A stretch of DNA of 64,000 bases from Lentibacter sp. (GTDB lineage: Bacteria > Pseudomonadota > Alphaproteobacteria > Rhodobacterales > Rhodobacteraceae): positions 620-64,619 of the forward strand of contig JADGEJ010000009.1 of the NCBI GenBank assembly GCA_016744435.1, in the 5' to 3' direction. Shown here one piece after another: positions 19,401-26,493 of this stretch (position 1 is its first letter; each line of letters opens with the position of its first letter). A program made the position numbers and the translations under genes. A model generated the notes under the pieces. The model had not been told where the DNA came from. It made no database searches and was given only the letters and a program-made list of their open reading frames with translations.

Positions 19401-20480
19401 TCAAATCGAGTCAGGGTCCGCGTCCAGAAGTTCCCAACTCATTGGAGTACCTTTGGTTACATCGCGCCCTACACGTCGGCCAATTAGTGCATCAAAATAC
19501 TTCGGCGCTAAGCCAAGGCCAGGGCGAATACGGCGCAAATTCGCCGCAGTGAGTACGTCACCTTGTTTCATGTCTTCGCCGATGTAAAGAGAACGGCGCT
19601 TTTTGCGGCCCGCTTGTTCTGACGCTGTTCCGCCAAACCAGATCTGGCCGAGCGACTGTGCAGCGCGTGTTGTTTCGACAACCAGCTGGGTGAATTCGTC
19701 AGGCTCAAGCGAGAACGCGCTGTCAACGCCGCCTTCGGAGCGGTCGATGATGAAGTGCTTCTCGATCACACTGCCGCCGAGTGCTGTTGCGGCCACGGCC
19801 ACGCCGCAGCCCATGGTGTGGTCTGACAGGCCGTAGTTGACGCCAAAGGTGTTGCCGATCACCGGCATTGTCACAAGGTTGGTGTTTTCTGGCGTCGCCG
19901 GATAGCTTGAAGTGCACTTCAGCAACGTGAGGTTTTTGCAGCCAGCACTGAGCGCCGTTTCAACCGCTTCGCCTATCTCGACAATGCTTGCCATGCCAGT
20001 AGAGATGATCATCGGCTTACCAGTCTGCGCAACGCGGCGCACCAGCGGCAGATCAACTGTTTCAAACGAGGCGATCTTATAGGCCGGCGCATCAAGGCTT
20101 TCGAGCAAGTCAACGGCATCTTCCGAGAACGGCGATGAAAACGCCAAGATGCCCTTTTCTTTCGCGCGATCAAAGATCGGCTTGTGCCACTCGGCGGGCG
20201 TCATCGCGATCTGGTAAAGCTCATAGAGGTTGCGGCCATACCAAAGCGACTTCGGGTCAGTAATGGTAAACTCACCTTCCTTCAGATCAAGCGTCATGCT
20301 GTCTGGCGTGAATGTCTGGATTTTGATCGCGTCAGCACCTGTGGCTGCCGCTGCATCAACAATAGCTAAAGCGCGCTCAAGCGACTGGTTATGATTGCCC
20401 GACATCTCGGCGATGATGAAAGGTGTGCCATCATCTTTGAGGGCGTGGGTTTTTGCCAGTTCCTGTCTCAGTGTCAGCAT
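19401..20480 (-). CDS. pseI: Pseudaminic acid synthase (NeuB family with a C-terminal SAF domain)
   Basis: FIIAEMSGNHNQSLERALAIVDAAAATGADAIKIQTF and the C-terminal SAF-like LYIGEDMKQGDVLTAANLRRIRPG. It is the last biosynthetic gene of the pse operon. Confidence 0.8.
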   Translation of the reverse strand: MLTLRQELAKTHALKDDGTPFIIAEMSGNHNQSLERALAIVDAAAATGADAIKIQTFTPDSMTLDLKEGEFTITDPKSLWYGRNLYELYQIAMTPAEWHKPIFDRAKEKGILAFSSPFSEDAVDLLESLDAPAYKIASFETVDLPLVRRVAQTGKPMIISTGMASIVEIGEAVETALSAGCKNLTLLKCTSSYPATPENTNLVTMPVIGNTFGVNYGLSDHTMGCGVAVAATALGGSVIEKHFIIDRSEGGVDSAFSLEPDEFTQLVVETTRAAQSLGQIWFGGTASEQAGRKKRRSLYIGEDMKQGDVLTAANLRRIRPGLGLAPKYFDALIGRRVGRDVTKGTPMSWELLDADPDSI

Positions 20481-20485
20481 CGTCT

Positions 20486-21409
20486 TCAGGCCTTCTTGTT
20501 GGAATTATCTGCAGTTTCGCGCAGGTCTTGCAGGCCAGCGCGCAAATCAAGCTTCGGGGTCCAGCCTAGCATCTTGCTGGCAAGATTAACATCCATAGCT
20601 GTATGCGGCATAGGGGTGTCGCTGTCAGTGTCGTAGCGTATGTTGCCTGCGTTGCCGAACACCTCGTTGGTTGTCTCGGCGATCTGGCCGATAGACCAAG
20701 CCGTGCCGCCACCAACGTTCACGGGGCCCTGCGCGTCAGTACTTTGCAGCGCGGCTAATATGGCCGAGGTGGCGTCGCGCACATAGAGCTGGTCAATCCG
20801 GTAGTCGGGGTTGCCTGTCAGCACGATCGTTTCGCGCGCCTGCGCCTGACCGATGAATTTCATCATCGCGGGCGTACCCTTTTCGCCGTGGCCATAGACA
20901 GCGGCAAACCGCAGTGAAACCTGCGCTGGGCCACGCGTGCGCGTCAGCATTTCAAGGTGCTGCTCGGCCATGAGTTTGGACAAGGCATAGGCGTTGATAG
21001 GGCGCTCAGGCGCGTCCTCGCGGTAGGGCAGACCAGACGCTGGAGAGTAGACAGCGATCGTCGAAGCAAAGACAATCTTGCGCACCCCGGCCTCGCGCGC
21101 GGCATTCACCAAATCAGCAATCATCGCGACATTGGGTTGCCAGAACGGGCCGATATCCATCGGCGCGTCTTCCCGCGTCATGCGGCGCCCTGCAAGGTGC
21201 ACAACCGCGTCGGCACCCTCAAAGGCCTCTACGAGGCTGGCGAAGCTGTAGTCTGTCTGGCGTGCTTGCGGGCCGATGGGAGCCGAGCGACCAATGCTGA
21301 CGCAACTATAGCCCGCAGCGTGCAGATCATCGCGCAGATAACGGCCGATAAACCCGCCTGCGCCGGTGACAGCGACGGTGCCAGTCGTTATGCCAGCGGC
21401 ATCGCTCAT
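20486..21409 (-). CDS. NAD-dependent epimerase/dehydratase (extended SDR)
   Basis: Rossmann motif VTGAGGFIGRYL and catalytic YALSK. It has a 4-nt overlap with the upstream ATP-grasp gene. Confidence 0.8.
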   Translation of the reverse strand: MSDAAGITTGTVAVTGAGGFIGRYLRDDLHAAGYSCVSIGRSAPIGPQARQTDYSFASLVEAFEGADAVVHLAGRRMTREDAPMDIGPFWQPNVAMIADLVNAAREAGVRKIVFASTIAVYSPASGLPYREDAPERPINAYALSKLMAEQHLEMLTRTRGPAQVSLRFAAVYGHGEKGTPAMMKFIGQAQARETIVLTGNPDYRIDQLYVRDATSAILAALQSTDAQGPVNVGGGTAWSIGQIAETTNEVFGNAGNIRYDTDSDTPMPHTAMDVNLASKMLGWTPKLDLRAGLQDLRETADNSNKKA

Positions 21410-24286: not shown

Positions 24287-24340
24287 AGTCAAGCCTCGGT
24301 TCTGCGAGAGGCCGACGGGCATGCCGCGCCGGCCATTTCG

Positions 24341-25495
24341 CTAGGTAAAGGTCTTTTCCAAGGCCTCAATAACGGTTTGCTGATCATCACGTGTCAGCTG
24401 CGCATACATCGGAATAGTGATCATGCGATTGTAGTAGTCTTCGGAGTTGGGGCAATAGCCCGCCTCAAATCCGAGCGCCTTGTAGTAAGGCTGCAGATAG
24501 ACCGGAATGTAGAGAACATTCACGCCAATCCCCAACTCACGCAGCTTGTCAAACGCCTCGGCGCGGCTCACAGGCGCGTCGGCATTTACCAAGATCGGGT
24601 AAAGGTGTAGCCCTGAGCGCTGGTAAGGTGCCTGATACGGTAGCGTGATCGGCAGATGCGCAAGTTCGCGGTCATAGATTTCACGATGCGCATGGCGCGC
24701 GTCGATATATTGCGAGAGACGGCCGATCTGGCTCAGGCCCAATGCGGCTTGCAAGTCGGTGATGCGGTAATTGTAGCCCAGCGCGACTTGCTGGTAATAC
24801 CATGGCCCGTCACTTGGCCCCTGCATGAACGCGGGATCACGTGTAATGCCGTGGCTGCGCAGCATGAACATCTTGTCAGCAAGCGCATCATCATTGGTCG
24901 TGGCGACACCGCCCTCGGCTGTGGTGATGATCTTGACAGGGTGAAACGAGAAGATGGTGATATCGGAGTAGGCGCAATTACCCACGGGCGCGCCATCATA
25001 GCTGCCGCCAATCGCGTGGCTGGCATCTTCCACCAGTTTGAAACCGTATTTGTCACGCAGCGCACCAAGGCGTTTCATGTCACACGACTGGCCCGCAAAG
25101 TGCACGGGCGTCACGATTTTGGGCAGCTTACCCGCCTTGTCGGCTTGGGCCAACTTGGCTTCAAGCTGGTCAAGGCAAAGGTTGTAGGTCGCCGCGTCGA
25201 TATCGACGAAGTCAACATCGGCACCGCAATAAAGCGCAGCATTTGACGTGGCGACAAAGGTGTTTGGCGTTGTCCAGACAGTGTCGCCCGGCCCCAGACC
25301 AAGCGCCATGTAGGCCACATGCAACGCAGCGGTGGCCGAACTCATAGCAACAACGTGACGCGCCCCGCAGGCCGCGCCAAGAGCGTTTTCAAATGCCGTG
25401 ATCTTCGGCCCTTGAGTGATAAAATCACTGGTCAGGGCTTCTACGACGGCCTCGATATCACCTTGGGTGATATCTTGACGGCCGTAGGGGATCAT
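24341..25495 (-). CDS. pseC: UDP-4-amino-4,6-dideoxy-N-acetyl-beta-L-altrosamine transaminase (DegT/DnrJ/EryC1 family)
   Basis: [17 protein letters not shown], the PLP-lysine region [10 protein letters not shown], and ITIPMY near the C-terminus. It has a 4-nt overlap with pseB. Confidence 0.85.
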
Positions 25496-26493
25496 AGCAT
25501 CGCTGCCTTGTTGAACTCGACGATTTCGTCAGCCGCAAGGAAGTGATCGTTTGAGCCTGAGTTGAACTCAAATCCGGCTTCCACAGGCGTGCCTTCTTCG
25601 CCAATCGCGTTCACTTCATAGCTTTGATCAATGTCAAAGAAGCGGATCGTTGGCTGTAGCACGTAGTGGTCGTGGAACTCGAGCGTCAGGTGGCTGTCGT
25701 CGGCTGGGCACATGATTTCGTGCAGCTTTTCGCCGGGGCGAATGCCGATAACGTGCTGCTCAAGATCAGGAGCGATAGCTGCCGCCAGCTCCGGAATGCG
25801 CACTGAAGGGATCTTGGGAACGAAAATCTCGCCGCCGCGCATGCGCTCAAAGTTTTTCAGAACAAAATCAACGCCGTCTTGCAGCGAAATCCAGAAACGA
25901 GTCATCTTTTCGTCGGTGATCGGCAGGCTTTTGGCACCTTCGGCGATCAGCTTTTCAAAGAACGGAACAACTGAGCCACGCGAGCCGACAACGTTGCCGT
26001 AACGCACAACAGCAAAGCGTGTTTGCTTGGAGCCGACCATGTTGTTGGCGGCCACGAACAGCTTGTCAGATGCGAGCTTTGTCGCGCCGTAAAGGTTGAT
26101 CGGGTTCGCGGCTTTGTCTGTCGACAGTGCGATAACTTTGGTGACGTTGTTCGCAATCGCCGCGTGGATCACATTCTGAGCGCCGTGAATGTTTGTTTTG
26201 ATACATTCCATCGGGTTGTATTCGGCGGCAGGAACTTGCTTCAGAGCCGCGGCGTGAATCACGTAATCGGTGCCTTCCATGGCGCGCACAAGGCGGTCAC
26301 GGTCACGCACGTCGCCGATGAGGTAGCGCATTTTTGGCGAGTCAAATGTCTGCGCCATTTCGTATTGCTTCAGTTCATCGCGTGAAAACACGACGATCTT
26401 TTTTACATCGTAGTTGTCGAGCAGCGTTTTGACGTATTTTTTACCAAAGCTGCCAGTGCCGCCAGTAATCAGGATTGTTTTGTTATTGAACAT
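25492..26493 (-). CDS. pseB: UDP-N-acetylglucosamine 4,6-dehydratase (inverting)
   Basis: [26 protein letters not shown] and [12 protein letters not shown], the typical PseB/FlaA1 pattern. Confidence 0.88.

Follow-up and report, generated by a model that had tools for sequence, protein, structure and literature searches.

An ATP-grasp protein and an extended short-chain dehydrogenase/reductase at the pseH position of a variant pseudaminic acid operon

How is the 4-amino group of a pseudaminic acid (Pse) precursor acylated in an operon without pseH? The question is raised by a 64,000-nucleotide stretch of Lentibacter sp. DNA (contig JADGEJ010000009.1, positions 620 to 64,619; hereafter the window), in which an ATP-grasp protein and a short-chain dehydrogenase/reductase (SDR) of the extended type lie among the Pse genes. 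Pseudaminic acids decorate capsules, O-antigens, flagella and S-layers, and their N-acyl groups set antigenicity as well as phage and host recognition. Canonically, the 4-amino group is N-acetylated by PseH, a GNAT that depends on acetyl-coenzyme A (CoA). To our knowledge, few of the enzymes that add N-acyl groups other than acetyl have been identified. Friedrich et al. describe knowledge of the enzymes that modify nonulosonates as 'scarce' (PMC5378307).

The operon is a variant Pse operon in an ABC-transporter-type capsule locus of a Roseobacter-group alphaproteobacterium. A first-pass annotation of the window had proposed that acylation of the 4-amino group may fall to the ATP-grasp protein instead of PseH, and that the SDR could tailor the acyl group or epimerise the sugar. 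We consider it an even bet that the pair substitutes for PseH, the chemistry being read from context, fold and motifs. The acylation part of the proposal has gained ground: three phyla keep the pair at the pseH position with no PseH nearby, Clostridia have it as a single fused protein, and it recurs in WecE-containing operons without WecD. The role of the SDR has shifted, with a reductase now favoured over an epimerase. The case is plausibly one of non-orthologous replacement of a single pathway step. The operon comprises the following genes, in the order of their transcription.

25492..26493, minus strand: pseB, UDP-GlcNAc 4,6-dehydratase (inverting); TIGR03589 548 bits, cut-off 408; its stop overlaps the pseC start
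24341..25495, minus strand: pseC, UDP-4-amino-4,6-dideoxy-N-acetyl-beta-L-altrosamine transaminase; TIGR03588 530, cut-off 424; Pfam DegT_DnrJ_EryC1
23579..24322, minus strand: pseF, CMP-pseudaminic acid synthetase; TIGR03584 283 bits, cut-off 206; match from residue 15
22533..23582, minus strand: pseG/flmD-type UDP-sugar hydrolase, GTG start; TIGR03590 167 bits, cut-off 154
21406..22536, minus strand: ATP-grasp protein, 376 amino acids (aa); Pfam ATP-grasp_3/4, GARS_A, Dala_Dala_lig_C
20486..21409, minus strand: extended SDR of the NAD-dependent epimerase/dehydratase type, 307 aa; PF01370, 130 bits
19401..20480, minus strand: pseI, pseudaminic acid synthase; TIGR03586 476 bits, cut-off 340; Pfam NeuB and SAF

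All seven open reading frames (ORFs) of the first-pass annotation are present where it had placed them and run in tandem along the minus strand from 19401 to 26493. Their order, pseB-pseC-pseF-pseG-ATP-grasp-SDR-pseI, is upheld by NCBIfam equivalog scores for five genes and by Pfam for the other two. The four 4-nucleotide overlaps that it had listed (at 25492, 23579, 22533 and 21406) can be read directly from the sequence: ATGA at pseB/pseC, GTGA at pseF/pseG, and ATGA at both pseG/ATP-grasp and ATP-grasp/SDR. The SDR is translationally coupled to the ATP-grasp gene, and pseG has such an overlap at either end. PseB, PseC, PseG, PseI and PseF, five of the six pathway enzymes, are identified as such because their equivalog scores all exceed the curated NCBIfam cut-offs; neither the ATP-grasp protein nor the SDR reaches any curated NCBIfam cut-off. 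The pseG homologue in Tritonibacter is annotated FlmD. The true start of pseF is probably 24286 rather than 24322, giving a protein of 235 aa that begins MQIAII, as in the public gene call. A promoter and terminator scan from 15.9 to 29.4 kb yielded no usable operon boundary, the terminators not exceeding shuffled expectation.

The canonical Pse5Ac7Ac pathway (PseB-PseC-PseH-PseG-PseI-PseF) is known from Campylobacter, Helicobacter, the rhizobial rkpL-Q genes with rkp3_013, and Acinetobacter psaA-F. The window shares five of its six enzymes and its operon order; the difference is the PseH slot, which is filled here by the ATP-grasp protein and the SDR. The absence of a GNAT, noted at first pass for 13-42 kb, holds over a wider range. 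Pfam scans, which took in every ORF of 140 aa or more from 10.4 to 45.1 kb and most of what remains of the window, gave no match to a GNAT or hexapeptide acyltransferase. Five long ORFs beyond 45 kb (45484-48636, 48879-50888, 53023-54102, 60310-61572 and 62417-63979) were covered by six-frame PseH searches only, without Pfam, and four others (4455-5246, 5198-5917, 59822-60298 and 61651-62259) have no Pfam match. A phmmer search with two annotated PseH queries returned nothing from the window, whose six-frame translation gives 664 segments that are 50 aa or longer. A small PseH hidden Markov model (HMM), run on the window with filters off at E<=10, also returned nothing; in a control locus the model did find a GNAT, though an unrelated one. 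The 64-kb window therefore holds no recognisable PseH-type GNAT N-acetyltransferase, and the gene is missing at exactly the position taken by the two extra genes.

The same arrangement recurs well beyond this genome. A homologue search with the ATP-grasp protein returned 440 relatives, and genomic context was fetched for loci among them. In these contexts, the block pseG, ATP-grasp, SDR, pseI is found in about 18 species-level loci, usually with pseF, a protein of about 1000 aa combining tetratricopeptide repeats (TPR) with a glycosyltransferase domain, and pseB and pseC close by. Carriers include Paracoccus denitrificans, Brevundimonas diminuta, Rhizobium herbae, three Pararhizobium, a Mesorhizobium, Tritonibacter mobilis, Marinovum algicola, a Jannaschia and several metagenome-assembled genomes (MAGs). 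Beyond the Alphaproteobacteria, a Spirochaete MAG and the actinobacterium Nostocoides bring the number of phyla with the pair in the pseH slot to three. The Nostocoides order (pseB-pseC-pseF-pseG-ATP-grasp-SDR-pseI) is identical to that of the window, and its PseG is confirmed at 194 bits. Neither phmmer nor the PseH HMM found a PseH-like ORF within 10 kb of the module in any of the roughly 18 Pse loci. Canonical clusters taken for comparison do have pseH, adjoining pseI on an Agrobacterium plasmid and between pseG and pseI on a Bacillus thuringiensis plasmid. In a neighbour-joining tree, the ATP-grasp sequences from Pse contexts form one clade.

Other candidates were considered and set aside. 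The rhizobial protein RkpP was rejected as the same ATP-grasp enzyme: in tblastn searches of plasmids and chromids, the only strong matches lay in Marinovum, Tritonibacter, Paracoccus and Sinorhizobium sp. RAC02, the remaining replicons of Sinorhizobium gave about 27%, and NGR234-type replicons were not among the strong matches. The rhizobial K-antigen rkp-3 region does resemble the present locus in being a capsule-type locus with KpsMTE-like export. Sinorhizobium fredii NGR234 instead uses the acetyltransferase rkp3_013, which has been called an flmH ortholog and is 26% identical to FlmH (PMC7591256). A pair made up of an AAC(3)-type N-acetyltransferase and DUF4910 was rejected as a PseH substitute. 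It is found in the Tritonibacter, Marinovum, R. herbae and Pararhizobium clusters, and is read as accessory because it is absent from the window (as it is from Paracoccus and Brevundimonas) and also occurs beside canonical pseH on the Agrobacterium plasmid. A Bacillus cereus plasmid match to the ATP-grasp protein was put aside on account of its unrelated context.

Further features of these loci deserve mention in their own right. The aminopeptidase-like DUF4910 and AAC(3) genes lie together at L009:10703-12819, in loci L008, L011, L013, L016 and L017, and at L065:979-4259; they resemble Cj1295-Cj1297 of the C. jejuni flagellin glycosylation locus. In the Spirochaete MAG (L007:3529-6398), the Pse cluster holds two ATP-grasp genes with a 113-aa ORF between them, one L-amino-acid-ligase-like (394 aa, LAL_C2) and the other the orthologue of the window protein. 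A large protein with a weak Asn_synthase/PP-loop signature adjoins the module in Paracoccus (L002:12049-13905, minus strand), and another adjoins an ATP-grasp homologue in Chloroflexi (L023:4607-6799). Such proteins may be amidotransferases for further N-acyl or acetamidino modification.

What chemistry could the ATP-grasp protein bring to this position? Its AlphaFold2 model has a mean confidence (pLDDT) of 93. Compared with known amide ligases, as had been suggested at first pass, the predicted fold matches L-amino-acid ligases and PurT with TM-scores of about 0.8. Foldseek places it in the three-domain ATP-grasp fold, with top matches at E values of 1e-24 to 1e-27 and TM-scores of 0.71-0.81. 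The neighbours are 4dim (an uncharacterised structural genomics entry), the L-amino-acid ligase BL00235 (TM 0.80), RizA, PurT (TM 0.79), PurK and biotin carboxylase. PurT and the L-amino-acid ligases turn a carboxylate into an acyl phosphate and then into an amide, and PurT uses formate and ATP to form an amide on the amine of a ribonucleotide. We propose that the window protein is likewise a carboxylate-amine ligase, similar in its predicted structure to PurT and to L-amino-acid ligases (BL00235, RizA, YwfE/BacD), with the same acyl-phosphate chemistry. The likeness to PurT extends to an amine substrate that is also a sugar-phosphate derivative. The differences are an identity of just 15-18% to the PurT and L-amino-acid ligase structures, the proposed amine (that of a nucleoside diphosphate (NDP)-4-amino-4,6-dideoxyhexose) and an obligate SDR partner.

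Curated models do not name the protein. No ATP-grasp equivalog (PurT, PurD, Ddl or any other) is reached, the best being PRK02186 at 83 bits against a cut-off of 625; the PurT models give 28-37 bits against 339-502. PF14305 has no match in Pfam searches either, and the protein falls outside the TupA-like group. Across all contexts, 57 positions are at least 95% conserved, including D-G-C-H-M-W-R-L-I, and almost none is specific to the Pse clade. Such conservation suggests that the chemistry is alike in all contexts, perhaps with a similar acid. In the alignment, the candidate nucleotide- and Mg-binding residues K142, E180, E187, Q257, E269 and R273 are each at least 95% conserved.

A second genomic context narrows the choice of substrate. 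In 14 Clostridia loci, the ATP-grasp protein and the SDR are joined in a single chain (about 655 aa) that begins with the ATP-grasp domain and ends with the SDR domain. These loci are not Pse clusters. They carry RmlA and an RmlB-like 4,6-dehydratase, an aminotransferase that is a WecE equivalog (596-646 bits), an ArnC/PgfS-like GT2 glycosyltransferase, two ArnE-like small EamA proteins and a membrane protein of about 600 aa. Approximately 20 dTDP-sugar loci bearing the pair lack a WecD-like GNAT; the one case of a weak WecD-like GNAT is discussed below. The two pathways have in common a 4,6-dehydratase of their own, a 4-aminotransferase of their own, an NDP-4-amino-4,6-dideoxyhexose product and the lack of the customary acetyl-CoA-dependent GNAT. 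Because the dTDP sugar has no carboxylate, the sugar would have to serve as the amine partner of a carboxylate-amine ligase. As both pathways include a 4,6-dehydratase for the purpose, the SDR is not there as a maker of keto sugars.

The layout of the Clostridia fusion recalls ArnA. In arnBCADTEF, an N-acylating domain is fused N-terminally to an extended SDR, beside a DegT-type aminotransferase. The Clostridia relatives share this fused layout, together with an ArnC-like GT2, ArnE-like small proteins and a large membrane protein. They differ in that the acylating part is an ATP-grasp domain rather than a formyl-tetrahydrofolate transferase, the SDR lacks the T-S-E motif and it is not needed to provide a keto sugar; in the window, the ATP-grasp protein and the SDR are moreover separate proteins. 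An ArnA-like role of the SDR as a keto-sugar generator was rejected on the grounds that PseB or an RmlB-like enzyme is present and that the motif is neither TDE nor TSE.

As a separate observation, the operon in gut and rumen Clostridia is Arn/Pgf-like (L045:487-13794; L038, L041, L042, L048, L053, L057, L062, L063 and others) and additionally encodes a protein of 1000-1270 aa and a cadherin-like protein. It probably serves to decorate a surface polymer or protein with N-acyl-4-amino-6-deoxyhexose by way of a lipid-linked form.

What, then, does the SDR do? Its motifs GxxGxxG, S-[ST]-x-x-V-Y and YxxSK (TGAGGFIG, ASTIAVY and YALSK) are kept in all homologues, fusions included, and it is regarded as catalytic because they are intact in every member. 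Three other positions depart from the pattern of NAD+-dependent enzymes acting on UDP-sugars. At the end of beta-2, the NAD-specifying Asp has become Gly/Ser/Thr-Arg (Gly-Arg in the window protein). In RFAAVYG, an Ala stands where PelX and 3ehe carry Asn, so that the Asn of RxxN is absent. DSDTPMPHT aligns with R-x-G-D-[VI]-R of MoeE5 and PelX, and the Arg of RxGD is absent. We take the roles of these residues to be those in E. coli GalE, the beta-2 Asp giving NAD+ specificity and the RxxN Asn and RxGD Arg contacting the UDP-sugar. Measured against GalE, the SDR thus has GxxGxxG and Ser/Thr-Tyr-Lys but neither the acidic beta-2 residue nor the UDP contacts, and the curated GalE model TIGR01179 scores 89.5 bits, below its cut-off of 262. 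The active-site motif is GalE-like (S-T-x-x-V-Y, YxxxK), being neither the TDE of dehydratases nor the TSE of decarboxylases. Measured against ArnA, there is no formyltransferase domain, the proteins are separate in the window, and S-T-I or S-S-R stands in place of T-S-E. The NCBIfam matches of the SDR include OleD-type keto-acid reductases. From its residues, the enzyme looks NADP(H)-preferring, and it is read as an NADP(H) reductase tied to the ligase because the Asp is replaced, the UDP contacts are missing and OleD-type matches are found. Its substrate is probably the acyl part, a role that these motifs favour over sugar epimerisation; this is the weakest step of the proposal.

Put together, the proposed route would run as follows. 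PseB and PseC, which match at equivalog level, would make UDP-4-amino-4,6-dideoxy-beta-L-AltNAc in the usual way. The ATP-grasp enzyme would activate a free carboxylic acid as acyl phosphate and acylate N4 (the future N7) instead of PseH. The SDR, depending on NADP(H), would either convert a common keto acid into the hydroxy acid beforehand or act once ligation has taken place, by reducing a keto-acyl group. PseG, PseI and PseF would then yield a CMP-Pse5Ac7(acyl) donor, whose sugar unit the TPR protein downstream of pseI may transfer, and KpsMTE would export the product. The candidate acids can be put in a rough order, which is a guess: first C3-C4 hydroxy acids (for example 3-hydroxybutyrate, glycerate or lactate), then formate or acetate, then a small amino acid. 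A dehydrogenase beside an ATP-grasp ligase prepares the acid or amino acid of that ligase in known systems: VanH reduces pyruvate to D-lactate for VanA, and BacC/BacD is a further case. These dehydrogenases belong to other families and no sugars are involved, which makes this an analogy of logic only.

The module may have a wider reach, because it would also replace WecD. Somewhat more tentatively than for the pseH slot itself, at a little under even odds, we suggest that the pair works as a general module that N-acylates NDP-4-amino-4,6-dideoxyhexoses without CoA. It would have displaced a GNAT at least twice (PseH here, and WecD in Clostridia operons for dTDP-Fuc4N/Qui4N) and would install a non-acetyl group, for example a hydroxyacyl group, from free acid, ATP and NADPH.

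The first-pass annotation had called the route undescribed, and this agrees with the literature as far as it could be searched: outside most subscription journals, which that search did not cover, neither an ATP-grasp enzyme in the role of PseH nor this pair has been described. One operon invites comparison. SfmE (SO_3265) of Shewanella oneidensis is an ATP-grasp_4 protein encoded along with a reductase and a methyltransferase in an operon for the nonulosonate modification of flagellin (PMC3765264). It differs in size (412 aa) and in operon, the latter holding a FabG-like classical reductase and a thiamine pyrophosphate enzyme (PMC3765264).

Several observations weigh against the substitution of PseH by the pair. 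The view is limited to 64 kb, and a PseH or other acyltransferase elsewhere in the source genome is possible. Caulobacter does not have flmH linked to flmD and flmC, and its acetyltransferases show redundancy (PMC7591256). PseG, PseI and PseF score as ordinary equivalogs, and PseI is about 60% similar to PseI of canonical clusters, about equal to its similarity to distant module-bearing PseI. The acyl group is therefore probably small, and these enzymes are compatible with plain Pse5Ac7Ac. In the gammaproteobacterium Methylotuvimicrobium, a weak WecD-like GNAT adjoins the pair, the only such locus. Chloroflexi homologues of the ATP-grasp protein (37-43% identity; loci L023-L033) come without SDR or aminotransferase. 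Finally, it is nucleotide-sugar 4-epimerases (3m2p, MoeE5 and PelX) that the SDR matches best in sequence. In Chloroflexi, a Wzt-like ABC ATPase is the immediate neighbour of the ATP-grasp homologues, with glycosyltransferases and BNR proteins around them, and these homologues may represent a different use of the same ligase chemistry.

Some of these points feed an explanation that we consider unlikely, though it deserves to be taken first: PseH or another GNAT encoded elsewhere would make Pse5Ac7Ac, and the pair would be a later tailoring unit that amidates the carboxylate of the finished sugar or polymer, or adds an amino acid elsewhere. The small part of the genome in view, the unlinked and redundant acetyltransferases of Caulobacter and the wholly canonical look of PseG, PseI and PseF would all suit it, and ATP-grasp enzymes that amidate the carboxylates of capsule sugars do exist. 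Cj1438C, a TupA-like protein of the C. jejuni HS:2 capsule, forms such an amide bond on a capsule sugar (PMC11800379). It differs from the enzyme proposed here in that the sugar (GlcA) gives the carboxylate, a small amine is added, the enzyme acts on the polymer and the ATP-grasp subfamily is another one (PMC11800379). Against a tailoring unit, the window protein is not TupA-like, lacking PF14305, and its fold is that of PurT and the L-amino-acid ligases. Moreover, the pair sits between pseG and pseI with 4-nucleotide overlaps, and the roughly 18 loci all lack a local PseH. It also occurs in dTDP-4-amino-4,6-dideoxyhexose operons, where the sugar has no carboxylate to amidate and WecD is missing.

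A further alternative, which we judge quite improbable, keeps the ligase but changes the product. Here the SDR would really epimerise a sugar, for example the UDP-sugar (at C3) or the nonulosonate, to give a Pse stereoisomer, and the ATP-grasp protein would N-acetylate or N-formylate with free acetate or formate in the manner of PurT. A role of the SDR on the sugar is conceivable because its best sequence matches, which include its nearest solved relatives, are nucleotide-sugar epimerases; its active-site motif is GalE-like, and PurT is among the top structural neighbours of the ATP-grasp protein. However, the SDR lacks the Asp for tight NAD+ binding as well as the Asn and Arg that contact the UDP-sugar. 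PseI and PseG are near canonical, which argues that the stereochemistry of their substrates is probably unchanged. The same SDR is also kept in the dTDP-Fuc4N/Qui4N context, which ties its role to the ligase and not to one sugar. Lastly, a carboxylate reduction without any sugar acylation, in which the ATP-grasp protein makes an acyl phosphate, the SDR an aldehyde and the aminotransferase an amine, would suit the order of the domains in the fusion, the apparent NADP(H) preference, weak matches of the SDR to thioester-reductase models and the constant proximity of an aminotransferase, but is highly improbable in that the aminotransferases are equivalog PseC and WecE, each with its own 4,6-dehydratase supplying a 4-keto substrate, neither pathway offers an obvious carboxylate substrate, and no precedent is known for the direct reduction of an acyl phosphate by an SDR.

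If the pair does substitute for PseH, it would represent a new activity in the tailoring of nucleotide sugars, that of an ATP-grasp ligase with an NDP-amino sugar as its substrate. Glycan structure would become predictable from sequence in many marine and soil Alphaproteobacteria and in gut Clostridia, and a CoA-independent, possibly promiscuous tool for Pse analogues would be at hand. Should the pair be a general module, it would supply missing enzymology behind the N7-acyl diversity of bacterial sialic-acid-like sugars. Paracoccus denitrificans has been reported to make several bacterial-type nonulosonates, numbering 4-5 species (PMC8157484). As it is genetically tractable and bears the module, the question is directly testable there.

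The operon is part of a polysaccharide island that spans about 28 kb, from roughly 13.2 to 41.8 kb, and is flanked by housekeeping genes, namely those for a glutathione S-transferase, an FMN-binding protein, a MiaB-like radical S-adenosylmethionine (SAM) protein and DapF, with petABC and haem uptake further out. Window proteins are 70-85% identical to those of Tritonibacter, Marinovum and Roseovarius, which places the source in the Roseobacter group. The presence of ABC2_membrane, ABC_tran and Capsule_synth domains identifies an ABC-transporter-dependent capsule locus. The genes around the operon are these.

14372..16150, plus strand: KpsS/KpsC-like capsule synthesis protein; PF05159 Capsule_synth 50 bits; homologues in the R. 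herbae and Marinovum loci
16212..19376, minus strand: 1054-aa protein with TPR and a GT-B-like domain, directly downstream of pseI; AlphaFold2 pLDDT 81
26651..27421, minus strand: class I SAM methyltransferase, directly upstream of pseB; Pfam Methyltransf_11/23/25
27485..28231, minus strand: GT2 glycosyltransferase, TuaG-like; PF00535 112 bits; NF047683 221 bits, below cut-off
28249..29064, minus strand: KpsM-like ABC-2 permease; PF01061
29137..30471, plus strand: KpsE-like export protein; no Pfam match; 63% identical to a Tritonibacter 'sugar transporter'
30481..31161, plus strand: KpsT-like ABC ATPase; PF00005
33849-35312: ManC
35321-36472, minus strand: DUF6716 glycosyltransferase
36773-37975: fusion of a CMP-nulosonate synthetase (NeuA) with a HAD phosphatase
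37979-38764: CST-I-like sialyltransferase
38781-39872: AGE-type GlcNAc 2-epimerase
39874-40857, minus strand: NeuB paralogue

The KpsE-like assignment rests solely on its annotated Tritonibacter counterpart, which adjoins ABC transporter genes. The 1054-aa protein has no sequence match in Pfam, NCBIfam or the PDB, and all 30 homologues are called 'hypothetical'; it is conserved beside pseI in alphaproteobacterial loci. In its model, a TPR superhelix occupies the N-terminal part and a GT-B-like domain the C-terminal part, and the top Foldseek matches are SPINDLY and OGT (TPR with GT41), a capsule multienzyme and KpsC, with low global TM-scores. The predicted structure makes it a candidate pseudaminyl transferase or polymerase, acting on protein or capsule, of an undescribed family. 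The architecture resembles that of SPINDLY, OGT and FlmG.

The genes between 35321 and 41763, which include a GT2-like protein, form a second nonulosonate pathway in the same island, and the same set is found on a Tritonibacter plasmid. This suggests a Neu5Ac- or Kdn-type sugar besides Pse. At the island edge lies a DUF2793 protein of 328 aa (13203-14189, plus strand). Two proteins with RTX repeats (HemolysinCabind), at 11158-12972 (minus strand) and 31272-33833 (plus strand), flank the island or lie inside it, one of them between kpsT and manC, and an RTX/M10 protein also stands beside the Tritonibacter cluster. A link between these RTX proteins and the TPR glycosyltransferase through protein glycosylation is conceivable.

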